Origin: Candidatus Latescibacterota bacterium
Lineage (GTDB): Bacteria > Latescibacterota > UBA2968 > GCA-2709665
DNA length: 64,000 nt
NCBI GenBank assembly: GCA_965237675.1
Contig: OZ250150.1
Span: 608,001-672,000, forward strand
Direction of reading: 5' to 3'
The translations under genes were made by a program, and so were the position numbers. Below are positions 48,618-63,081 of the stretch, piece by piece. How positions within the stretch are numbered: position 1 is the first letter of the stretch; the number at the start of each line of letters is the position of its first letter. A model generated the notes under the pieces. It ran no database searches, was not told where the DNA came from, and was given only the letters and a program-made list of their open reading frames with translations.

Positions 48618-49424
48618 ATGGCGTTCGCGTCCTCAAATTCCCTGCGCCATCAAAGACTCGGTTTTACCCGGGAGCGTATCCACTATCCCGCGCCTTCGTC
48701 CCGGCCATGGATCGTCCCCACCGTGGTACGTTTCAAGAACCCGGACGTAGACCTGAAGCTGCACTACCTGAAAATCATTCGCGTTTCCGTAGTCCTCTCT
48801 TCAATACTCCTCGCTCTTTTGTGCCTCGTCTTTCCGACGTTTGAATTTCGCAGCTATTCAGCCTATCCCGCGCCGATTATCATCACGCTCGAAGATATCC
48901 CTGAAACCTATCAGGCGCCAAAACCCGAAACCGAAGATGTGATTTTGGGCTCAGGCGACCTGGATGGCATGGCCGTCGTTGACACCGTCGAAGGAGAGGA
49001 ATCGGACATCGACTTTCTCGCCAACCTCCATATCGATGACACGCTCGGCGATATGGATCGGACGCTTGACGAGGATGCCGTGGAATTCTGGGCTGTTTCA
49101 AAAGAACCGGTACTCGTACGTGAGGTGCTGCCCATCTACCCCAAAATCGCCCACGAGTCCGGCCTCGAAGGGGCTGTCTTCGTCAAATTCGCCGTTGGCA
49201 CGGACGGACGGGTCAAAGAAGCCTCGATTCTGAAGGGTCCCAGGATATTTCACGCATCCGCCCTGGAAGCCGTCTACCAATTTATCTTCAAACCAGCTCT
49301 TCAAAACGACAAGCCTGTCGCGGTCTGGATGACGCTCCCCATACGTTTCCGCCTTGTTGACAACCCGCTTGAACCCCGGCCCCTGCAGGTATTCGAAACG
49401 CCATCGGTGCGCATTTCGCATTGA
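48618..49424 (+). CDS. Energy transducer TonB family protein
   Basis: TM anchor, acidic linker, P.YP..A...G.EG.V.VKF and F.PA....PV; start uncertain. Confidence 0.85.
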   Translation: MAFASSNSLRHQRLGFTRERIHYPAPSSRPWIVPTVVRFKNPDVDLKLHYLKIIRVSVVLSSILLALLCLVFPTFEFRSYSAYPAPIIITLEDIPETYQAPKPETEDVILGSGDLDGMAVVDTVEGEESDIDFLANLHIDDTLGDMDRTLDEDAVEFWAVSKEPVLVREVLPIYPKIAHESGLEGAVFVKFAVGTDGRVKEASILKGPRIFHASALEAVYQFIFKPALQNDKPVAVWMTLPIRFRLVDNPLEPRPLQVFETPSVRISH

Positions 49425-50764: not shown

Positions 50765-51496
50765 ATGTCCAGGCTTGAAGGTAAAGTCGCGTTGGTAACC
50801 GGCGGAAATCAGGGTATCGGGAAGGGAATCGCGCGGGCACTGGCCAAAGAGGGCGCGAACCTGGTGTTGACGGCCCGAACGGTGGAGACACTGGAATCGG
50901 CGGCGAAAGAGATCCGTGCGGAAGGCGTGGAGGCGCTGGTGGCGCCCGCGGACGTCACCGACGAAACGCAGGTGGAGGCCGTGTTCGCGCAAACGATGCA
51001 ACGGTTCGGAAGGGTGGATATACTTGTGAATAACGCGGCGGCGTTCGACGGGGGACCCATCGACAAGCTTTCCGCATCCGCCTGGGATTGGGCAATGGCG
51101 GTGAATCTGCGCGGACCCTTTCTGTGTACGCGGGCGGCGTTTCGCATCATGAAAGAACAGGGCGGCGGCCGGATAATAAATATAGGCAGCATTTCCGCGC
51201 AGCGGGTCCGTCCGAATTCCGCACCCTACAGCACGAGCAAATTCGGCATCACGGGCCTGACGCACGCCACGGCGCTGGACGGCCGGGACTACGGTATCGT
51301 TTGCTCATGCCTGCACCCCGGCAATACGCTGGTGGAACGTCGCCAGGTATCCGACGCGCCCACGGACGAGGAACCGATGATGACGGTGGATGAATTGGCG
51401 CAGGCCGCGGTCACCATGGCCACACTGCCGCTCCACGTCAACATGCTGGAGGCAATCGTGCTGCCCGTGGGGCAGCTATACGTTGGAAGAGGATGA
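50765..51496 (+). CDS. SDR-family oxidoreductase
   Basis: TGGNQGIG, LVNNA and YSTSK. Confidence 0.92.
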   Translation: MSRLEGKVALVTGGNQGIGKGIARALAKEGANLVLTARTVETLESAAKEIRAEGVEALVAPADVTDETQVEAVFAQTMQRFGRVDILVNNAAAFDGGPIDKLSASAWDWAMAVNLRGPFLCTRAAFRIMKEQGGGRIINIGSISAQRVRPNSAPYSTSKFGITGLTHATALDGRDYGIVCSCLHPGNTLVERRQVSDAPTDEEPMMTVDELAQAAVTMATLPLHVNMLEAIVLPVGQLYVGRG

Positions 51497-51660
51497 AGGG
51501 TTACCGGCAATGTTCGAGGCCTATATGGTTCCGATTTCCAGGTGCAGGCGACAGGCGATCGTCGGAATGGGAAACGGCTTAACGGAGAACTGAATGCGCG
51601 TGAATTAAGGCCAGGTTCAAGGATCGGCGCGGCCAGTTTTTTTTGGATCGAGAAATTTTC

Positions 51661-51689
51661 TTGACACTCGGTATATGATTGTTTAATGT
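51661..51689 (+). promoter_or_regulatory. sigma70 promoter of the aromatic amino acid operon
   Basis: TTGACA-N17-TAATGT. Confidence 0.7.
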
Positions 51690-51774
51690 TACACCGTTCC
51701 TGTCGTAGCGGCTTTTCGCCGGAACCTGGCACCGGTACGAGGCGAACAGATGCCTTGATCAAAGGGGATCGAAC

Positions 51775-51879
51775 GTGACGGAACATGGTCGGAACGGGTT
51801 TTCCTGGCGTGGATATTTTTATCGCTCCTACCGGTGGTATTACCGGAAGGTCGCAGAAGGTGATGTCTGCCCACGCTAG
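51775..51879 (+). CDS. Aromatic amino acid leader peptide (34 aa; 2 Trp, 5 Tyr, 2 Phe)
   Basis: AAAGGGG RBS 7 nt before GTG; MTEHGRNGFSWRGYFYRSYRWYYRKVAEGDVCPR-TAG; not in the ORF track. Confidence 0.8.
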   Translation: MTEHGRNGFSWRGYFYRSYRWYYRKVAEGDVCPR

Positions 51880-51904
51880 TAAACCGTTGACAGAGCCGGA
51901 AACT

Positions 51905-51934
51905 GAGCCGTGGGCATCTGCTCACGGTTTTTTT
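51905..51934 (+). terminator. Attenuator terminator upstream of trpE
   Basis: GAGCCGTGGGC-ATCT-GCTCACGG then T7; 5' arm complementary to TGCCCACG at 51868-51875. Confidence 0.85.
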
Positions 51935-52093
51935 GTGACCCGGTCGAAACAGAACATCAGCGAGACGCTAATGCGGCAATCTTGCCGGACGGCTGCCTGT
52001 GGGTCGTTGCCGGAAAATCGATTGACCCTCATAACGGGACGCGGATGTTTGGATCGCACTTTGTAATGTATGTGTTGAAGTCATGAACACCTG

Positions 52094-53584
52094 GTGAATC
52101 TCTTGAGTACACCCGATTTGGAAACGTTAAAGACGCTGGCTGAAGGCCGTGGATTGGTTCCGATTTCCAGGGAAATCCTCGGGGATACGGAAACACCGGT
52201 GTCCGCCTATCTTAAGTTGCGGTCCAGGAGTCCCTACAGCTTTCTTTTCGAGAGCGTGGAAGGTGGAGAAAAGATCGGGCGGTATTCTTTCCTGGGGGTC
52301 GAACCGTTTCTGGCTTTTCGGTCGTGGAAATCCCGTATAGAGTTGGAAGATTTAAAGCGGGGTGACGTTCGGGTTTATGAGGGATCGCCCGTTGCCGAAC
52401 TCAGGCGGCTGCTGAAAAAATACTGCTCAGCCCAGTTGAAGGGACTGCCCAGGTTTACCGGCGGGGCTGTGGGCTACGTGGGCTACGACGCAATCCGGTT
52501 GGTTGAAAATATCCCTGACCGCACGCGCGACGATCACGGTTTGCCGGACATCGTGTTGCTTTTCTACGATACGCTTCTTGGTTTCGACAACGTGCGGCAG
52601 AGGATCCATCTGATTTCCAACGTACATACGTCCGGGGATATTGAAGACAATCACCGGGAGGCGGAGGCGCGGATCGATGCGCTTGATAGGGCCTTGCGCG
52701 GGCCAATTCCCACGAACTGCGTTCCGGAAAGAGCGCCCCGACGCGGAGCGCTCAAGATCCGATCGAACACGGAGCGGTCTGTCTATTTGGACAAGGTACG
52801 GCGCTGCAAGGAGTATATCGCGGCAGGCGACATTTTTCAGGTCGTCATTTCACAGCGCTTTGAGACCGAGATAACCGTCGGATCGCTGGACATTTACCGT
52901 GCACTCCGCACGGTGAATCCGTCTCCTTATATGTTCCATCTGGATCTGAAGGAGGTACAGCTTGTCGGCGCGTCACCGGAGCTGCTGGTTCGGGTCGAGA
53001 ACGGCGTCGTGCAGGTGCGGCCAATTGCGGGCACCCGCTGGAGGGGGGCTACGGAAGAGGAGGATTCCGCCCTGGAGGCGGATTTGCTGAAAGACGAAAA
53101 GGAACGTGCGGAGCACATTATGCTGCTGGACCTGGGCCGGAACGACGTGGGGCGGGTATCCCGTTACGATACGGTACGGGTAACGGAACAGATGGCAATT
53201 GAACGATATTCTCATGTGATGCATATTGTGTCGAATGTTCAAGGGGTTCTCAACGATGGCGTCGATGCCCTGGATGCGCTTTATGCCTGTTATCCGGCAG
53301 GCACGGTCTCGGGCGCGCCCAAGATCCGTGCCATGGAAATTATCGACGAACTGGAAACGACCCGCCGAGGACCGTATTCGGGGGCGGTGGGTTATATCGA
53401 CTTTTCGGGCAATATGGATACCTGCATAGCCATTCGTACGATGGTGTTACAGGGCAAGAGAGCATACGTCCAGGCCGGTGGGGGAATTGTGTTCGATTCC
53501 GTACCGGAGGACGAGCACCAGGAGACGGTGAACAAGGCGAAGGCGTTGTTCAAAGCAGTGGAATTGGCGGAGGGTGCGGTTTAG
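52094..53584 (+). CDS. trpE: Anthranilate synthase component I
   Basis: GDIFQVV.S, NPSPYM, PIAGT, EH.ML.DLGRND and GTVSGAPK.RA. Confidence 0.96.
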   Translation: MNLLSTPDLETLKTLAEGRGLVPISREILGDTETPVSAYLKLRSRSPYSFLFESVEGGEKIGRYSFLGVEPFLAFRSWKSRIELEDLKRGDVRVYEGSPVAELRRLLKKYCSAQLKGLPRFTGGAVGYVGYDAIRLVENIPDRTRDDHGLPDIVLLFYDTLLGFDNVRQRIHLISNVHTSGDIEDNHREAEARIDALDRALRGPIPTNCVPERAPRRGALKIRSNTERSVYLDKVRRCKEYIAAGDIFQVVISQRFETEITVGSLDIYRALRTVNPSPYMFHLDLKEVQLVGASPELLVRVENGVVQVRPIAGTRWRGATEEEDSALEADLLKDEKERAEHIMLLDLGRNDVGRVSRYDTVRVTEQMAIERYSHVMHIVSNVQGVLNDGVDALDALYACYPAGTVSGAPKIRAMEIIDELETTRRGPYSGAVGYIDFSGNMDTCIAIRTMVLQGKRAYVQAGGGIVFDSVPEDEHQETVNKAKALFKAVELAEGAV

Positions 53585-53633: not shown

Positions 53634-54197
53634 ATGATTCTGGTAATCGACAATTACGATTCGTTCACCTACAACCTGGTTCAGTATCTGGGTGAGTTGG
53701 GCGCGCGGATGGAGGTATTCCGGAACGATCGGATCGGACTGGACGAGATCGGCGCATCCCGACCGGACAAGGTAGTGATTTCACCCGGTCCGTGTACGCC
53801 GAACGAGGCGGGAATCTCTGTGGATTTGATCCGGCGGTATACGGGGCGGATTCCGATGCTGGGCGTCTGTCTGGGGCATCAATGCATCGGACAGGCGTTT
53901 GGCGGCACGGTCGTGAGGGCTCCGGCGATTCTCCACGGTAAAGTATCGGAGATACACCACGACGGACGTTCGATTTTCAGGGATATGTCAAATCCGTTCA
54001 TTGCCACCCGATACCATTCCCTGATTGTGGAACGCGAGAGCCTGCCGGACTGCCTGGAGGTCTCCGCGCAGACGCATGACGGGATTATCATGGGATTGCG
54101 GCACCGGGAGTATCCGGTCGAGGGCGTGCAGTTTCATCCGGAGTCCATCTTGACGTCCGAGGGCAAAGTGTTGTTGCGGAATTTTCTGGATGGCTGA
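53634..54197 (+). CDS. trpG: Anthranilate synthase component II
   Basis: [24 protein letters not shown]. Confidence 0.95.
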
Positions 54198-54252
54198 ATT
54201 CGGGGATCTGTAAATGGGTCCGGTTCTCTGTCTGCAAGTCAGGGAGATGGCT

Positions 54253-55269
54253 ATGTCGATACAGGATTCGATTGCAAGGCTGATTGAGGAACAGAATCTG
54301 ACACGGGACCAAATGGTCGGGACGATGAACCAGATTATGTCGGGCGGAGCGACGGACGCACAGATCGGTGGGTTTCTGGTCGCGTTGCGCCTCAAGGGGG
54401 AGACAGCGGAGGAGATCGCGGGCGCCGCGGAGGTGATGAGGGAAAAGGCGACCCGGATCGTGACGAGACATGCGACGGTGGTCGATACATGCGGCACCGG
54501 AGGTGATGGGTCGGGCACTTTCAATATATCGACGGCCGCAGCGTTTGTGGTTGCGGGCGCTGGCCTTTGCGTGGCCAAACATGGGAATCGCGCGGCAACC
54601 AGCTTGTGTGGCAGCGCGGATGTCTTAAAGGAACTGGGGGTGAATATCGAGGCGGCGCCGGAGACGGTGGTACGGTGTCTGGATGAGGTAGGCATCGGGT
54701 TCCTGTTTGCTCCGGCTTTGCACGGTGCAATGAAATATGCGATCGTACCCAGACGCGAACTCGGCGTGCGCACGGTTTTCAACGCTCTGGGGCCACTCAC
54801 CAATCCTGCGGGGGCAACCCGGCACCTGATCGGAGTATATAGTCGATCGCTGACCGGCAGGCTGGCGGAGGTGTTGCGAACATTGAATTCGGAACGTGCG
54901 TTTGTAGTTCACGGCCTGGACGGACTGGATGAGATCACCACGACCGGACCGACGCAGGTGAGCGAGTTGAAGAACGGAACGGTATCCACGTATGAGATCA
55001 GACCGGAGGATCTGGGCATCGCCAGGGCGACGACAGGTGATCTGGCAGGGGGCAACGCCGAGACCAATGCGGCGATTCTGCGCAGGGTGCTGAATGGTGA
55101 GCCTGGTGGGCGGCTGGATGTTGTCTTGCTGAATGCGGCAGCCGCCATCGTAGCCGGTGGCGCCGCGGATGATCTGCCGGCAGGGATAGCCCTGGCCAGG
55201 GAGGCCGTGGATTCGGGGCGGGCAATGGAAAAACTGGAAGAACTGAAACTGGTCTCGGACGGAGGGTAG
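54253..55269 (+). CDS. trpD: Anthranilate phosphoribosyltransferase
   Basis: DTCGTGGDG..TFNIST, KHGNR, DGLDE. Confidence 0.97.
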   Translation: MSIQDSIARLIEEQNLTRDQMVGTMNQIMSGGATDAQIGGFLVALRLKGETAEEIAGAAEVMREKATRIVTRHATVVDTCGTGGDGSGTFNISTAAAFVVAGAGLCVAKHGNRAATSLCGSADVLKELGVNIEAAPETVVRCLDEVGIGFLFAPALHGAMKYAIVPRRELGVRTVFNALGPLTNPAGATRHLIGVYSRSLTGRLAEVLRTLNSERAFVVHGLDGLDEITTTGPTQVSELKNGTVSTYEIRPEDLGIARATTGDLAGGNAETNAAILRRVLNGEPGGRLDVVLLNAAAAIVAGGAADDLPAGIALAREAVDSGRAMEKLEELKLVSDGG

Positions 55270-55360: not shown

Positions 55361-56152
55361 ATGGCTACAATCCTGGATGAGATCATCGCTTATAAGCGTC
55401 GCGTTGTGGCTGAGGCAAAACAACGGATTTCCCATGGGGAGTTGCAGAAGCAGTGGGATCTGGTCCGTGAGCCGGTCTCGTTGATTGAAAACCTGACTGC
55501 CGGGGAGGATATCGCGTTGATTGCGGAGATAAAGAAGGCATCTCCGTCGAAAGGAGTGATTCGCGAAGATTTCGATCCGGTGGAAATCGGCCGGGTTTAC
55601 GAAAAAAACGGCGCGGCGGCAATTTCCGTGCTGACGGATGTGAAGTATTTTCAGGGCTCCGACGACAGTCTGAAGGCCGTAAGCGAAGCCGTGGAACTGC
55701 CGGTGCTCCGGAAGGATTTCGTGGTTGATCCTTATCAGATCCATGAAGCCAGAACAATCGGGGCGTCTGCGGTTTTGCTTATTGTTTCAGCGCTCTCGCA
55801 ACGTGACCTGGCAGGGATGCTCGCTGTCTGCAGGGAGTCGAAATTAGGCGCGCTGGTGGAAGTGCACACCAGAGAGGAAGCGAGGATGGCGCTGGACGCG
55901 GGAGCAGAACTCTTGGGGGTGAATAACCGCGACCTGAAGACATTTAAAACAGACTTGCGAACCACATTCGACCTCATGGAACATCTGCCAGACGAACTTG
56001 TGACGGTCAGTGAAAGCGGTATCGAGACCAGGGACCAGGTGGTTCGATTACGGGAAGCCGGCGTGGATGCGGTGCTGGTCGGGGAGCATCTGATGCGCCA
56101 CCCTGATGTCGGTCGGAAGCTTCGAGCGCTGTTGGGCAAGGAAGGCGGCTGA
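55361..56152 (+). CDS. trpC: Indole-3-glycerol phosphate synthase
   Basis: IAEIKKASPSKG, LRKDF, NNRDL, ESGI. Confidence 0.97.
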   Translation: MATILDEIIAYKRRVVAEAKQRISHGELQKQWDLVREPVSLIENLTAGEDIALIAEIKKASPSKGVIREDFDPVEIGRVYEKNGAAAISVLTDVKYFQGSDDSLKAVSEAVELPVLRKDFVVDPYQIHEARTIGASAVLLIVSALSQRDLAGMLAVCRESKLGALVEVHTREEARMALDAGAELLGVNNRDLKTFKTDLRTTFDLMEHLPDELVTVSESGIETRDQVVRLREAGVDAVLVGEHLMRHPDVGRKLRALLGKEGG

Positions 56153-56160
56153 TTCAAACC

Positions 56161-56781
56161 ATGGTTCGGGTGAAGATTTGCGGCATCACGAATCCGGAGG
56201 ATGCGCTCTTTGCGGTTGCACAGGGCGTTGACGCCCTGGGGTTCATCTTTTATGAGCCCAGCCCGCGTTACGTGCATCCTGACCGCGTGAGCGAGATCGT
56301 GTCGGAGTTGCCGCCGTTTGTCACGCCAGTTGGCGTTTTCGTGAACAAGGTCAGGGAGGATATCCTGGCAATTGTGCGGTCGACGCGGCTTCGGGCGGTC
56401 CAATTGCACGGCGACGAGACGCCGGCTGATTGCCAGGGGTACCCTTTTCCGGTCATCCGTGCATTGCGGGTCGGCGAGGGATTCAACCCTGCGTCGCTGA
56501 GCGTTTATCCCGTAAACACGTTTCTGCTGGATACGGCAAAAAAAGGATGGTACGGCGGTACGGGAGAGACCTTTGACTGGCGGGTTGCAAGGGCAGCTGC
56601 GGCACACGGTCGGATCATCCTGTCGGGGGGGATCGATCCGCAAAACGTGGCGGAAGCGGTCCGAATGGTGAATCCGTATGCCGTGGACTGCGGCAGCGGC
56701 GTTGAGGCCGCGCCAGGCAGGAAGGACCACTGCAGGATCGCAGAGTTTTTCGAGGCGCTTCGCTCTGTAAACGGGAACTAG
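56161..56781 (+). CDS. trpF: Phosphoribosylanthranilate isomerase
   Basis: KICGIT, QLHGDE, GGTG.TFDW, SGVE..PG.KD. Confidence 0.96.
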   Translation: MVRVKICGITNPEDALFAVAQGVDALGFIFYEPSPRYVHPDRVSEIVSELPPFVTPVGVFVNKVREDILAIVRSTRLRAVQLHGDETPADCQGYPFPVIRALRVGEGFNPASLSVYPVNTFLLDTAKKGWYGGTGETFDWRVARAAAAHGRIILSGGIDPQNVAEAVRMVNPYAVDCGSGVEAAPGRKDHCRIAEFFEALRSVNGN

Positions 56782-57033
56782 ATTGCCGAAATTCGGCCGA
56801 CCAGAAGCAGCAAGAACAGCTATCTGCTCTCAGCCGTCAGCTTGAATCAAAAACCCAATCAGTTGACGTCAGCGCCGTGAAAAGCCAGCACCCAGAACGG
56901 GCGCAATGAGGGCACTTCTACAGGCTCAGTGTCCACATTTCCACAAACTTGCTTCGGCAAGCCGTTTCGACAGGCTCGACGTAGAAAACGCACCCGGCGA
57001 ACGCAAAGCGGATGGATTGCCGAAATCTGCGAC
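56762..57033 (+). repeat. Mosaic copy of the MITE-like repeat modules
   Basis: TAGATTGCCGAAATTCGGCCGA begins at the trpF stop; ~115-bp match to 12471-12584; CAGGCTC motifs shared with other copies. Confidence 0.75.
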
Positions 57034-57083
57034 AATCAGCGTAATTTTGCTTCATCAACCGAATCGATCTGGAGCGAGACATT

Positions 57084-58349
57084 GTGGACATCTTGAAAGA
57101 TCTGGAGTTCCGGGGGTATGTTTTTCAGGTAACGGACGCCAGCGGACTCAAGGCGCGGCTCGCCCGGGGGCCGATTACGCTCTATTCGGGGTTCGATCCC
57201 ACGGCAGACAGCATGCACCACGGTAACCTGATACCCATTCTGGGACTGCGCCGTTTCCAGTTGGCCGGGCACCATGCAATTGGCCTTATCGGGGGAGGCA
57301 CCGGTTTGATTGGCGATCCGAGCGGCAGCAAGGAAGAACGCCGGTTGAACCCGCCCGAGGTGATCGAGGCATATACCGGGAAGCTGACAGAGCAATTGGC
57401 TAAATTTCTGGATTTCGAGACACGGACAAATCCGGCGCAGGTGGTCAGTAATTCGGGCTGGCTTTCCGAACTCAGGGCAATTGACTTCCTGAGGGACACC
57501 GGCAAGCATTTTTCCATGGGTTATATGCTGGCGAAAGAGTCTGTGGCCTCCAGGCTGGAGTCGGGAATATCGTTCACTGAATTCAGCTATATGGTCATAC
57601 AGGCACATGACTTTATGGAGCTGTTTCGGACGCACGGATGCGAGTTGCAGATTGGTGGGAGCGATCAATGGGGCAATATTACCGCAGGAATAGAGTTGAT
57701 CCGTCGTCGGCTGCGCGGGCAGGCCCACGGGCTGACGTTTCCGCTGCTGGAGAAAGCCGACGGGTCCAAGTTCGGCAAGACGGCATCCGGTACCGTCTGG
57801 CTGGATGCTGCGAAGACATCGCCCTATCAGTTCTACCAGCACTGGATCAATACGGATGACCGGGATGTGGTGAGTTTCCTGAAGCTGTTTACCTTTCTCC
57901 CAAAGGATGAGATCCGAAATCTTGAATTGGAAGTGGCACAACGCCCCGAGAAGCGGCAGGCTCAGCGGGTGCTGGCCCACGAGGTGACCACGTTCGTACA
58001 CGACAGGGCCGCCACGGAGCGGGCGGAGCGGATATCCGAGGCGTTGTTTTATGGGGATCTGCGAAATTTGAGTGCTCAAGAGATAAAGGAAGCGTTCAGC
58101 GACGTGCCATCTCATGCGCTCAATGGCGTTTCTGAAGTGGGTCTGGTCAGTCTGCTGGTCGATGTCCGGATTTCATCATCCATGCGCCAGGCACGCGAAG
58201 ACATCAAGTCCGGTTCGATACAAATCAATGGCCGGCGGTGCACCGATTTAGGCCGGATCCTTGAGCCTTCCGACAGACTCGCGGGAAAATACCTGGTGGT
58301 GCGCCGGGGCAAACGCCGCTACTTTCTGGTGCGCTGGAATAATTGGTAG
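57084..58349 (+). CDS. tyrS: Tyrosine--tRNA ligase
   Basis: GFDPTADSMHHG, QIGGSDQWGNI, KFGKT, C-terminal S4 domain. Confidence 0.97.
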   Translation: MDILKDLEFRGYVFQVTDASGLKARLARGPITLYSGFDPTADSMHHGNLIPILGLRRFQLAGHHAIGLIGGGTGLIGDPSGSKEERRLNPPEVIEAYTGKLTEQLAKFLDFETRTNPAQVVSNSGWLSELRAIDFLRDTGKHFSMGYMLAKESVASRLESGISFTEFSYMVIQAHDFMELFRTHGCELQIGGSDQWGNITAGIELIRRRLRGQAHGLTFPLLEKADGSKFGKTASGTVWLDAAKTSPYQFYQHWINTDDRDVVSFLKLFTFLPKDEIRNLELEVAQRPEKRQAQRVLAHEVTTFVHDRAATERAERISEALFYGDLRNLSAQEIKEAFSDVPSHALNGVSEVGLVSLLVDVRISSSMRQAREDIKSGSIQINGRRCTDLGRILEPSDRLAGKYLVVRRGKRRYFLVRWNNW

Positions 58350-58442: not shown

Positions 58443-59420
58443 ATGAAAGCACCCTGGATTACCTATCGGCCGGAACTCAAAGTACTTGATTGTACGATTC
58501 GAGACGGCGGATTGATGAATGACCATCATTTTACAGATGATTTCGTGAAGGCAGTTTATGAAACGTGCGTTGACGCGGGCGTCGACTATATGGAAATCGG
58601 GTACCGAAATTCCAAGGAGATGTTCCCAAAAGGACAATTCGGACCCTTCCGACACAGCGACGAAGAAGATATCCGGAAGGTTACGGGTGATCACGACCCG
58701 GTGGCGACCGGCCTGAAGCTCGCCATTATGGCCGATGCGGGCAAGAGCGATTGGGCGGAAGACATCCTGCCGGCCAGCGAGAGCGTGGTCAGCATGGTAC
58801 GCGTTGCGTGCTACGTCGAACAGATCCCCGAAACCGTCGAAATGCTTTGCGACGCCCATGAGAAGGGGTATGAAACCAGCTGTAACATTATGGCCATTTC
58901 GACCGTGCAGGAGGTCGAGATTGACCAGGCGCTGGAGGTTCTCATACAAACGCCGGTTGGAACAATATGCGTTGTAGACAGTTTTGGCGCATTGTACCGC
59001 GAGCAGGTGGATATGCTCATTCGGAAGTATATGGAAGCCGTCGACGGAACAGGAAAGGAAGTAGGCATTCACGCGCACAACAATCAGCAACTGGCATTTG
59101 CCAATACCCTCGAAGCGCTGATTCTGGGCGCCAACCGGGTTGATGCCACCGTGGATGGACTTGGCCGCGGCGCGGGAAATTGCCCCCTGGAATTGCTGCT
59201 CGGATTCTTGCGGAATCCCAAGTTCAAGATTCGTCCTGTCTATAGGCTGCTGGAAGACCATTTTGTCAAATTGCGCGGTGACTTGACGTGGGGGCCCCTG
59301 ATTCCGTACAACATCACGGGTCAGCACAACCAGCATCCCCGCGCGGCGATGGCGCTTCTGGACGGGGAAGACCACAATCGGTATCTGGCATTCTACGATC
59401 AGGTGATGAGGGATATCTAG
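58443..59420 (+). CDS. DRE-TIM metallolyase, 4-hydroxy-2-oxovalerate aldolase-like catalytic domain
   Basis: LDCTIRDGG, VDSFG, HAHNN and GRGAGN...E. Confidence 0.85.
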   Translation: MKAPWITYRPELKVLDCTIRDGGLMNDHHFTDDFVKAVYETCVDAGVDYMEIGYRNSKEMFPKGQFGPFRHSDEEDIRKVTGDHDPVATGLKLAIMADAGKSDWAEDILPASESVVSMVRVACYVEQIPETVEMLCDAHEKGYETSCNIMAISTVQEVEIDQALEVLIQTPVGTICVVDSFGALYREQVDMLIRKYMEAVDGTGKEVGIHAHNNQQLAFANTLEALILGANRVDATVDGLGRGAGNCPLELLLGFLRNPKFKIRPVYRLLEDHFVKLRGDLTWGPLIPYNITGQHNQHPRAAMALLDGEDHNRYLAFYDQVMRDI

Positions 59421-59611: not shown

Positions 59612-60832
59612 ATGGAAACAATGGCACTTCTCAAAGCAGATGAACCAACCCGGACGTGGCCCGATTCCGGCGGACACTTCGGACCCTATGGCGGGCGCTA
59701 CGTTCCGGAAACGTTGATGCCGTTGTTGGAGGACCTGGAGGCAGCCTACCACGAGGCGAAGGGCCGTACGGATTTCAAGGAGGAATTGGACCGGTATCTC
59801 GCGGAATTCGTGGGAAGGCCGACGTCACTTTATTTTGCACAAAGGCTGACCGCCAAACTGGGTGGCGCCAGAATCTATCTGAAGCGGGAGGACCTGGCGC
59901 ACACGGGCGCGCATAAAATAAACAATACGATGGGGCAGATTCTGCTTGCCAAGCGGATGGGCAAAACGCGCATCATTGCGGAGACAGGCGCCGGTCAACA
60001 CGGAGTGGCGACAGCAACTGTGGCGGCGATGTTCGGAATGGCCTGCGAGATTTACATGGGCACCGAAGACATGGAACGGCAGGCGTTGAATGTGTTTCGG
60101 ATGCGGCTGCTTGGGGCCAGAGTGACCGGCGTGGACTCGGGCAGCAGAACACTGAAAGATGCGATCAACGAAGCCATCCGCGATTGGGTGACGAATGTGG
60201 AGGATACGTTTTATATTTTCGGATCCGTCCTGGGACCGCATCCGTATCCGATGATCGTGCGCGATTTTCAGCGGGTGATCGGGGTGGAAACGCGTCGTCA
60301 GATCCTGGAAGCGGAAGGCCGGTTGCCGGACTGTCTGATCGCGTGCGTTGGGGGCGGCAGCAATTCTATCGGGCTGTTTCATGCCTTTTTGGAGGACACG
60401 GACGTGCGGATGGTTGGTGTCGAAGCGGGAGGCCATGGGATTGCCTCCGGAGACCATGCCGCCCGATTTCAAGGTGGGGATCTGGGCGTGCTGCACGGGG
60501 CCCGGATTTACATCTTGCAGGATGAGGACGGGCAGATCGCCCTTACTCATTCGGTGTCCGCGGGTCTGGATTATTCGGGAGTAGGGCCGGAGCACTGCCA
60601 TCTGCGGGATGCAGGTCGGATCGAGTATGTGTATGCAACGGACGACGAGGCACTGAAGGCCTTTCAACTGTTGAGCCGCACCGAGGGTATAATCCCCGCG
60701 CTGGAAAGCGCGCACGCGATCGCGTACGTGTCCAAAGCGGCGCCCGAAATGGGCAAGGACGCGGTCATCGTGGCGAATCTTTCAGGCCGCGGCGATAAAG
60801 ACGTACAGCAGGCGGCGAAGTACCTGGATTAG
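59612..60832 (+). CDS. trpB: Tryptophan synthase beta chain
   Basis: [30 protein letters not shown]. Confidence 0.98.
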
Positions 60833-60885
60833 GCACCTTTCCGCCGATTGTGTTCAAGCCGGAATCGAAGAATGGGGTCGCTCGA

Positions 60886-61698
60886 ATGACAAGGATCGGG
60901 AAGCGGTTCGAAGCGTTGAAAGACGCGGGCAGGACTGGATTTGTGGCCTATATTACGGCGGGAGATCCGGATCTGGCAACCACCCGAAAACTGGTGCCGG
61001 AGTTGGAACGGCGCGGGGTGGACATTCTGGAGTTGGGCGTGCCGTTCTCCGATCCACTGGCGGATGGTCCGGAAATCCAGCAGGCATCGCAGCGGGCCCT
61101 GCGGCATCGGGTCTCAATCGGCGACGTGCTGAATCTGGTGGAGGACCTGCGGTTGGAGACGGAGATGCCGATCGTTCTGTTTACGTATTTCAATCCGATG
61201 CATCGATTTGGCCTGAAACGGCTTGTTGACCGGGCGGCGGAAGCGGGGGTCGACGGCATTCTCGCACTGGACCTCCCACCCGAGGAGGCGGCGGAGTACA
61301 AGTGTCTGATGGCGGAACAGGGATTGGACACGATTTTTTTGATTGCACCTACGAGCCGTGAGGATCGCATTCAACGGATTGCAGCTCATACCAGCGGGTT
61401 TGTGTATTACGTCTCACGCACGGGCGTAACGGGGGAACGGAACAGGCTGGAAGAGACGCTTGCCGCCAAGGTGGCGAGCATCCGACGGCATACGTCGCAA
61501 CCGATTGCGGTAGGGTTTGGAATTTCGACGCCCGAACATACCAGGGAGGTTGCAGGTTATGCGGATGCAGTCGTCGTGGGCAGCGCGATTGTTCGGCGAA
61601 TTGGGCAGCGGCAAGGCGATCCGGATCTTGTTTCACAAATTGGGACATTTGTGGAAGAGCTTGTGCAACCGTTGAAGGGAGCAGCGGATGGATCTTGA
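60886..61698 (+). CDS. trpA: Tryptophan synthase alpha chain
   Basis: ELGVPFSDPLADGP, GVTG, VGFGIS. Confidence 0.97.
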   Translation: MTRIGKRFEALKDAGRTGFVAYITAGDPDLATTRKLVPELERRGVDILELGVPFSDPLADGPEIQQASQRALRHRVSIGDVLNLVEDLRLETEMPIVLFTYFNPMHRFGLKRLVDRAAEAGVDGILALDLPPEEAAEYKCLMAEQGLDTIFLIAPTSREDRIQRIAAHTSGFVYYVSRTGVTGERNRLEETLAAKVASIRRHTSQPIAVGFGISTPEHTREVAGYADAVVVGSAIVRRIGQRQGDPDLVSQIGTFVEELVQPLKGAADGS

Positions 61699-62052: not shown

Positions 62053-63081
62053 ATGGCCTTCAGAAAAATCCTGAAGATACCCACGCCGGAAGCCGTGCTG
62101 GAGAAAATGTCGCTTCCGAAAACGCTGAAGACGATAAAGGAGGATCGCGACACGGAAATCAGGGATATTTTCGCGCGCAAGAGCGATAAGTTTCTGCTGG
62201 TGATCGGACCCTGTTCAGCGCACAACGAAGATGCCGTATGTGAATACGTATTCAGGTTGGCGAAACTGCAGGAGGCCGTCCGGGAAAAGCTGGTTCTGGT
62301 GCCGCGCATTTATACCAACAAACCCCGCACAACCGGCGAGGGGTACAAGGGGATGGGGCATCAACCGGACCCGCGGAAGGCACCGGATATTTCTCAGGGC
62401 ATTTTTGCGGTTCGTCAGATGCACATCCGCGCGGCCCGGGAATCACACCTGACGGCGGCCGACGAAATGCTGTACCCGGGCAATCTGCCTTATGTCGAGG
62501 ATCTGCTGAGTTATATCGCTGTAGGCGCACGATCGGTGGAAAATCAGCAGCACCGATTGACCTGCAGCGGCGTTGGCGTACCCGTGGGAATGAAAAACCC
62601 GACGGGAGGAGATCTTTCGGTAATGCTGAACGCGATTCATGCCTCACAGATTCCGCACGTCTTCATCTATAACGGTTGGGAGGTGCGCACCGACGGCAAT
62701 CCCTTGACACATGCCGTGCTTCGGGGCTTCCTGGACGTGACAGGGCGTAGTATACCGAACTACCACTACGAAGACCTCATGTACGTTGCGGAACTCTATC
62801 AGCAGCGCCCACTCGCCAATGCCACAATCGTCGTGGATACGAATCACAATAACTCAGGCAAGCAGTTCCGCGAGCAACCCAGGATCGGGTTGGAGGTAAT
62901 ACGCAGCCGGCAGAGTTCGGAGTTTTTGAAGGATATGATCCGCGGGTTGATGGTGGAAAGTTATCTGGTTGAGGGCTCTCAGAATGTAAATGACGGCGTG
63001 TACGGAAAATCCATTACCGATCCGTGCCTGGGGTGGAAGGAATCCGAGGCGTTTGTAAAGGAACTGGCGGACAGGATATGA
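62053..63081 (+). CDS. DAHP synthase, class I-alpha
   Basis: IGPCSA, KPRTT, GARS, GMKNPT, H.NS and GKSITD.C. Confidence 0.93.
   Translation: MAFRKILKIPTPEAVLEKMSLPKTLKTIKEDRDTEIRDIFARKSDKFLLVIGPCSAHNEDAVCEYVFRLAKLQEAVREKLVLVPRIYTNKPRTTGEGYKGMGHQPDPRKAPDISQGIFAVRQMHIRAARESHLTAADEMLYPGNLPYVEDLLSYIAVGARSVENQQHRLTCSGVGVPVGMKNPTGGDLSVMLNAIHASQIPHVFIYNGWEVRTDGNPLTHAVLRGFLDVTGRSIPNYHYEDLMYVAELYQQRPLANATIVVDTNHNNSGKQFREQPRIGLEVIRSRQSSEFLKDMIRGLMVESYLVEGSQNVNDGVYGKSITDPCLGWKESEAFVKELADRI

Follow-up and report, generated by a model that had tools for sequence, protein, structure and literature searches.

The trpL leader of Escherichia coli and Salmonella (RF00513) is located before trpE and consists of a leader open reading frame (ORF), a protector, an antiterminator and a terminator with its T-run, with the position of the ribosome selecting among the helices. 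The E. coli trpL leader holds a Trp-Arg pair. Attenuators of ilvGMEDA, ilvBN and thr in the same organism are multivalent, with codons for several amino acids of the shared operon, and serve the branched-chain amino acids and Thr/Ile rather than the aromatic amino acids. The pheL-pheA and pheST leaders of E. coli, as described in PMC11802643 and PMC3082878, attenuate by means of Phe codons and are devoted to a single amino acid. In Corynebacterium glutamicum, the Phe-Tyr-Phe leader aroR, located before aroF, acts by ribosome stalling and responds to Phe limitation, not to Tyr (Neshat et al. 2014, as summarized in PMC11802643). Predicted terminator/antiterminator structures also head large tyrA-containing clusters, such as that of Desulfovibrio vulgaris, in which the trp operon comes after aro genes (Song et al. 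2005, PMC1173090). Here, we describe a putative attenuator upstream of trpE in a Candidatus Latescibacterota bacterium. It is located at positions 51661-51934 of a 64,000-nt stretch (hereafter the window) of contig OZ250150.1 (608,001-672,000), in a genome of 5.6 Mb, and contains a leader peptide ORF (uORF) with codons for all three aromatic amino acids.

The element resembles trpL in its location before trpE, its set of parts and its proposed ribosome-position logic. No sequence or structure homology between the two is detectable (no match to the family in Rfam at E≤10), and the window leader differs in having a mixed set of aromatic codons (2 Trp, 5 Tyr and 2 Phe), a length of 34 codons and an antiterminator arm placed within the final codons of the uORF. 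Instead of trpEDCBA, it precedes an aromatic supraoperon of at least 18 genes. It also lacks homology to the ilv and thr leaders, and the Phe_leader family of Rfam does not match it, although pheST offers a parallel, as an aminoacyl-tRNA synthetase gene under attenuation in the manner that tyrS would be here. The closest characterised precedent is aroR, which we set beside the window leader by description, not by sequence. As presented in PMC11802643, it is likewise a characterised leader of mixed aromatic codons controlling a gene of the common pathway; it differs in having no Trp codon, only three regulatory codons, a position before a DAHP synthase gene, and a host from a different phylum. 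The window leader does not directly precede a DAHP synthase gene, which is found ~10 kb downstream; the first gene is trpE. The initial annotation, made from the sequence of the window, knew of no characterised example of a leader reading several aromatic amino acids, a statement that needs softening in view of aroR, even though aroR responds only to Phe. Full-text literature searches found no description of a Trp/Tyr/Phe leader, while an earlier computational mention (Lopatovskaya et al. 2010, supplements) is possible; the sections of PMC1173090 that deal with the tyrA-containing clusters give structures only, without leader peptides, codon content or Latescibacterota. The mechanism itself is not new; what is new is an uncatalogued mixed-aromatic attenuator conserved over a class of an uncultured phylum.

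An aromatic-rich leader ORF conserved across the class

The uORF encodes VTEHGRNGFSWRGYFYRSYRWYYRKVAEGDVCPR, followed by the stop codon. Nine of the 15 codons within 51799-51843 encode aromatic residues, in the order F, W, Y, F, Y, Y, W, Y, Y. This is the maximum for the genome, where nine aromatic codons are reached by 11 of 8,101,540 stop-free 15-codon stretches (six frames), corresponding to about 10 places. The Shine-Dalgarno (SD) motif AAGGGGA ends 6 nt ahead of the GTG start codon at 51775 and is itself preceded by promoter-like hexamers. The promoter, SD motif, 34-codon uORF and run of nine aromatic codons in 15 had all been proposed in the initial annotation and were recovered to the base, the promoter hexamers by reading of the sequence rather than by a scan.

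A TrpE match was obtained in each of the 61 genomes of this class (counting that of the window), and regions upstream of trpE were compared at 55 loci. Six genomes were left out, two with trpE split over contig ends (G007 and G041) and four in which the best TrpE match had ≤42% identity and partial query coverage (G055, G057, G059 and G060). Two loci (L101 and L133) are truncated at contig ends, leaving 53 informative loci, including the window. Pairing statistics refer to an aligned set of 48 distinct sequences, the genus consensus fold to 14 genus members (the window among them), and residue enrichment to the proteome of the window's own genome. The nearest named relative is a Latescibacteria metagenome-assembled genome (MAG; UBA2968) with a TrpE identity of 73%; it has exactly the same leader peptide as locus L100.

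An aromatic-rich uORF of 25-35 codons was found in all 53 informative loci (with an uncertain start in one), and each of these leaders contains at least one Trp, at least two Tyr and at least one Phe codon (medians of 2, 5 and 3, respectively). This conservation, together with the rarity of such runs in the genome, rules out a chance origin of the aromatic run. Most leaders of the window's order have 1-2 Trp codons, compared to 7-11 Tyr plus Phe codons. Residue order varies by genus, as in FSWRGYFYRSYRWYY, FFWRYFWYYRYY, YFWYFWRRFDGRYYYY and SRFYYYWRFY, while aromatic composition is retained; the median nucleotide identity of the aromatic part is 59% for 13 genus representatives. Substitutions of one aromatic residue by another occur within the genus of the window (Y to F twice, W to Y once). 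The aromatic enrichment is confined to the uORF frame, where such codons make up 116 of 408; the remaining two frames contain 31 and 34, each out of 395 codons. Over 13 genera, the leaders are enriched in Tyr (4.2x), Trp (3.4x), Cys (3.1x), Phe (2.7x) and Arg (1.65x). The Cys enrichment arises because TGC belongs to a conserved RNA core (see below), and a Cys-Pro pair is retained near the C-terminus of most leaders. A Trp-Arg pair recurs in the leader, as in trpL.

The signals ahead of the uORF are also widely retained. A loose, author-defined promoter pattern (TTGAC-N16-18-T[AT]NNNT) is present upstream of the uORF in 47 of the 53 loci, and a loose regular expression for an SD-like motif plus start codon matched 49, the other four being missed because the script chose TTG over a nearby ATG. 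A consensus promoter scan of 51300-52300 listed no promoter, since the -10 hexamer of the window agrees with the consensus at only three of six positions.

In the window's genus, 78-86 nt separate the -10 box from the start codon of the leader, compared to 17-62 nt in other genera, and the extra 5' stretch (51696-51760 in the window) is predicted to fold into hairpins. A second box (TTGACA-N16-18-TNNNNT), 9-29 nt past the T-run of the terminator, is present in 12 of the 53 loci scanned (L095, L096, L098, L099, L100, L102, L103, L104, L117, L122, L131 and L134), compared to 0.5 expected from shuffles; it is absent from the window's genus and from genus g6. In those 12 relatives, it may act as a promoter that bypasses the attenuator. 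Leaders of the window's genus favour less-used synonymous codons (TTT in 25 of 26 cases, compared to 37% in the long frames of the genome; TAT in 39 of 70, compared to 40%), a preference that carries little weight because the 14 leaders are closely related.

Mutually exclusive helices of the leader RNA

Sequence and folding support the coordinates given in the initial annotation for three mutually exclusive pairings, those of the protector, the antiterminator and the terminator (Table 1). The terminator (-16.8 to -18.2 kcal/mol) shares its 5' arm with the antiterminator, whose 3' arm it forms (51909-51916). A T-run follows the leader stop by 45-76 nt in 53 of 53 loci, with a hairpin detected by script in 52 and by motif only in L135. 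In the alignment, the terminator is paired in 97.5% of cells, compared to 29-54% in slid controls, and four of its 11 pairs show compensatory changes (e.g., one pair is CG in 30 sequences, UA in 14 and UG in 4). Cells changed on both sides number 23, compared to 8.5 in shuffles, and the observed score was reached by none of 500 shuffles. The terminator sequence occurs once in the genome, and its interpretation as a repeated element was therefore rejected. A G-U wobble (51913/51922) in the middle of the stem is retained in 45 of 48 relatives; its G has a C as partner in the antiterminator, and the wobble may bias the competition towards the latter.

The antiterminator (51868-51875 paired with 51909-51916) is the minimum free energy (MFE) structure of 51858-51919, i.e., of the RNA between a ribosome stalled on the last aromatic codons and the terminator loop. 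The pairing extends to 51868-51880/51902-51916 with an energy of -20.1 kcal/mol. Once the 3' arm of the terminator is included, the terminator is thermodynamically preferred (-26.7 kcal/mol). Preference for the antiterminator without this arm, and for the terminator with it, is the pattern of a kinetic switch. When the entire uORF was folded with the 3' arm left out, the terminator arm found other partners in many loci; this model was rejected, as the upstream part would be masked by a stalled ribosome. Across the alignment, the antiterminator is paired in 81% of cells, compared to 32-50% in slid controls, and its core TGCCC pairs with GGGCA in 43-48 of 48 sequences. In 52 loci, the core (GCCC or GTCC) lies a median of 25 nt past the last aromatic codon (range 2-26) and a median of 11 nt ahead of the leader stop; L136 lacks such a core. 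With this spacing, a ribosome at the stop codon would cover the core, whereas one stalled in the aromatic run would not. We rely on position, alignment and slid controls, since shuffle tests at single loci had little power.

The protector, formed by segments 1 and 2, is present in the MFE structure of the whole leader (-97.4 kcal/mol, z -2.83), together with the terminator and an inner hairpin in the aromatic run, and in that of 51796-51882 (-32.4 kcal/mol, z -2.4). It contributes 13 pairs to the genus consensus fold, none of which is changed in more than 3 of 14 sequences. The inner hairpin may be a pause hairpin. The alignment upstream of trpE in relatives, suggested in the initial annotation as a check, bears out the conserved F/Y/W codons (53/53) and a covarying terminator stem; the antiterminator core, being invariant, shows no covariation either way.

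Proposed mechanism and rival explanations

In the proposed mechanism, transcription would start ~80 nt ahead of the uORF. When all three aromatic tRNAs are charged, the ribosome would reach the TAG stop and cover segment 2, so that the terminator stem forms with its T-run and most transcripts end near 51934. If the uORF is not translated, segment 1 would capture segment 2 and the terminator would again form. A ribosome stalled on any codon of 51799-51843 would instead cover or unwind segment 1 and leave segment 2, which starts 25 nt past the last aromatic codon, free to capture the terminator's 5' arm the moment this arm is transcribed. RNA polymerase would then read into trpEGDCF-tyrS-x-trpBA, the chorismate mutase and DAHP synthase genes, tyrA and aroA (x being the aldolase gene of Table 1), and probably further.

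To the extent that sequence evidence allows, the attenuator interpretation of the initial annotation is supported, and the element very probably is a ribosome-mediated (leader-peptide) transcription attenuator. The anatomy of the element, its conservation, its frame specificity and its geometry are shown by the sequences. Translation of the uORF and kinetic competition between the helices are presumed steps; that the Tyr and Phe codons act as sensors alongside those for Trp is what we infer from their conserved enrichment. Taken as a whole, a classical attenuator with mixed Trp, Tyr and Phe regulatory codons is the explanation that we favour and consider likely. That the leader senses more than one aromatic amino acid seems to us fairly likely, with a little less assurance. 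The full form of the model, in which the leader acts as a three-input OR gate for the charging of Trp-, Tyr- and Phe-tRNA over a ~25-kb supraoperon of at least 18 genes, with a codon mix that co-evolves with operon content, is put forward tentatively, at somewhat under even chances. A role for the Arg codons as a fourth input, suggested by their enrichment and by the phylum-wide position of argS in the cluster, is speculation; an enrichment of only 1.65x led us not to adopt them as an established signal.

The Tyr and Phe codons could also be filler or serve RNA structure in an attenuator that senses Trp only, or Trp and one other amino acid. All 53 leaders contain Trp codons, those of sister lineages are dominated by Trp (WWWRFW type), leaders with WWW precede trpE in other phyla (L054, L056 and L059), and a Trp-only signal would suit an operon headed by trpE; moreover, aroR contains a Tyr codon and yet, according to PMC11802643, does not respond to Tyr. 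We nevertheless regard this explanation as unlikely, though deserving of weight. Tyr is the most enriched residue of all, Phe is enriched as well, and both remain so in each of the 13 genera despite reshuffling of the residue order. The excess of Tyr plus Phe over Trp codons in the window's order and the replacement of aromatic codons by other aromatic codons within its genus point the same way, and a Trp-only signal would be at odds with the presence of tyrS, tyrA, chorismate mutase and DAHP synthase genes in the operon.

The remaining explanations give the uORF another role or none. Selection of the helix by a protein or small ligand (TRAP-like, T-box-like or riboswitch), with an incidental uORF, is very improbable: the open frame, start codon, SD motif, frame-specific enrichment and footprint-like spacing are conserved despite nucleotide drift. 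In its favour, a binding site could also account for the unusual sequence conservation of the terminator and antiterminator core across the class. No Rfam family matched the whole window at gathering score, and a search of 51550-52150 at E≤10 returned no leader family, its single listing being a chance 13-bit match to a trypanosomatid snoRNA. The T-box, Trp_leader (RF00513) and Phe_leader families were rejected on this basis, and fragments of the T-box core are absent. A TRAP-type leader was rejected as well, as 51661-51940 contains only five (G/U)AG triplets and no run of four or more at 2-3 nt spacing. Slightly less credible still is a functional aromatic micropeptide, or a TnaC-like arrest peptide that senses a free amino acid. 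The Cys-Pro pair retained near the C-terminus would suit such a peptide, but it is encoded where the RNA core TGCCC, the partner of the terminator arm, is located, and RNA pairing explains its conservation; residue order is otherwise unconserved between genera. A chance ORF beside an ordinary terminator has practically no credibility: the weak -10 hexamer is the sole point in its favour, and it is opposed by the conservation, genome-wide rarity, geometry and frame specificity of the uORF.

Several observations weigh against the favoured model of a mixed-codon attenuator. The 53 loci come from related genomes (~13 genera in four families), so that 53/53 overstates the independent support. The -10 hexamer is weak and the start codon is GTG. 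The protector is documented within the genus only; other genera have different predicted partners, and 10 of 52 loci reached p≤0.05 in the low-power shuffle test. The antiterminator core is invariant (no pair changed on both sides) and thus cannot draw support from covariation, and its single-locus energy shuffle gave p≤0.05 at 9 of 52 loci. The Tyr codon of aroR, without a Tyr response in the account of PMC11802643, indicates that the presence of a codon does not prove sensing. A further difficulty is pheA, which is located outside the operon, ~88 kb upstream of trpE, with no aromatic leader in the 128-nt gap that precedes it. Non-coding gaps within the cluster (see below) may hold internal promoters or further control elements. 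Finally, the link between leader composition and cluster content, considered in the next section, rests on two or three independent contrasts.

The aromatic supraoperon and leader composition across lineages

Table 1. Coordinates of the attenuator features and of the downstream genes in the window
Feature	Position	Strand	Basis and remarks
Promoter-like hexamers (TTGACA 51661-51666, 17-nt spacer, TAATGT 51684-51689)	51661-51689	+	Read by eye; conservation of a loose pattern
5' untranslated leader, ~80 nt	51696-51774	+	Start placed from the -10 box; SD AAGGGGA at 51762-51768
Leader peptide ORF, GTG start, 34 codons, TAG stop (51877-51879)	51775-51879	+	Sequence; conserved as aromatic-rich ORF
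Segment 1, 5' protector arm over first Trp codon; partner 51871-51879	51804-51812	+	MFE and genus consensus fold
Hairpin within aromatic run	51827-51850	+	MFE; 9 pairs, retained in 11-14 of 14 genus members
Segment 2, shared arm, last four codons and stop; partners segment 1 or 51902-51916	51868-51880	+	MFE
Intrinsic terminator, stem 51905-51915/51920-51930 (11 pairs), loop 51916-51919, 7-T run 51928-51934	51905-51934	+	Sequence, folding, alignment
trpE	52094-53584	+	Pfam
trpG	53634-54197	+	Pfam
trpD	54214-55269	+	Pfam
trpC	55361-56152	+	Pfam
trpF	56161-56781	+	Pfam
tyrS	57084-58349	+	TIGR00234, 389 bits
HMGL-like aldolase gene, between tyrS and trpB	58443-59420	+	Profile match
trpB	59612-60832	+	Pfam
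trpA	60850-61698	+	Pfam
Chorismate mutase, 97 aa	61688-61981	+	Profile match
DAHP synthase	62053-63081	+	Profile match
Prephenate dehydrogenase tyrA	63118 onward, past window end	+	Profile match

The cluster continues past the window (G000:C1:670900-686000, i.e., locus L111) with aroA, aroE, ubiE, argS, aroK and aroB, following tyrA in this order. Genes of the supraoperon cover the Trp and Tyr branches as well as the common shikimate pathway, and two of them, tyrS and argS, encode aminoacyl-tRNA synthetases. The operon over the common pathway and the branch enzymes envisaged in the initial annotation is therefore present, with the Trp branch, chorismate mutase, tyrA, tyrS, DAHP synthase and aroA/E/K/B inside and pheA outside. 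Of 56 genomes with a TyrS match, 45 carry tyrS at most 8 kb past trpE and on the strand of the latter.

The codon mix of the leader varies with the content of the cluster. In families f1 and f2, leaders are rich in Tyr and Phe, and all eight regions have a DAHP synthase gene and tyrS, the latter located between trpF and trpB. Family f3 of the same class has Trp-dominated leaders (3-4 Trp, 1-2 Tyr and 1-2 Phe, e.g., RRWWWRFW and DWWRFWYY), which are clear in L136 and in three of seven additional loci; the script gave no clear leader for the rest. The f3 clusters (L171-L176) consist of trpEGDC, a gap of ~1 kb, a chorismate mutase gene (in five of six), tyrA, aroA, aroE, argS, aroK and aroB. None of the six f3 cluster regions has a match to tyrS, trpF, trpB, trpA, ubiE or DAHP synthase, the search for trpFBA being confined to the cluster regions. 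This correspondence fits selection on the codon mix. In other classes of the phylum, at least 8 of 23 informative loci have Trp-rich or mixed leaders and 14 have none that could be seen. In other phyla (77 informative loci of the best 80 TrpE relatives), any leaders present are of the WWW type, and the mixed-aromatic criterion flagged only L001, a Latescibacteria MAG with the leader of L100, and L080, which is ambiguous.

Other features of the cluster and its surroundings are as follows. The best NCBIfam matches of the HMGL-like aldolase are models of 4-hydroxy-2-oxovalerate aldolase, far under their cut-offs, and the gene is also present in genera g6 and g10. Non-coding gaps of ~300 nt occur before tyrS (56782-57083, with no Rfam match) and before aroE (L111 2767-3080). 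The argS gene (L111 4742-6808, i.e., G000:C1:675641-677707), which sits among aroE-ubiE-argS-aroK-aroB, encodes 712 aa with an N-terminal DUF559 part; most relatives lack this part and have open frames of 566-590 aa. Nearly all relatives have argS at this place in the cluster, 9-17 kb past trpE, and this holds for other families of the class as well as for some other classes. Upstream of the attenuator, a gene for a protein with a TonB C-terminal domain (48618-49424, + strand) points to an envelope of the Gram-negative type.

The element is class-wide in an uncultured phylum and is missed by Rfam models, which suggests that classical attenuation is old and widespread beyond Proteobacteria and Actinobacteria. 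The natural series from Trp-rich to Tyr/Phe-rich leaders offers material for studying the way in which the input of an attenuator depends on its codon content. In practical terms, it provides an annotation rule for trp/aro operons in MAGs and a candidate compact part for sensing aromatic starvation. If the three-way response is true, a single 105-nt ORF would balance three amino acids that compete for one precursor, a tRNA synthetase would be adjusted through the same signal, and multivalent attenuation, known for the branched-chain amino acids, would extend to the aromatic family.

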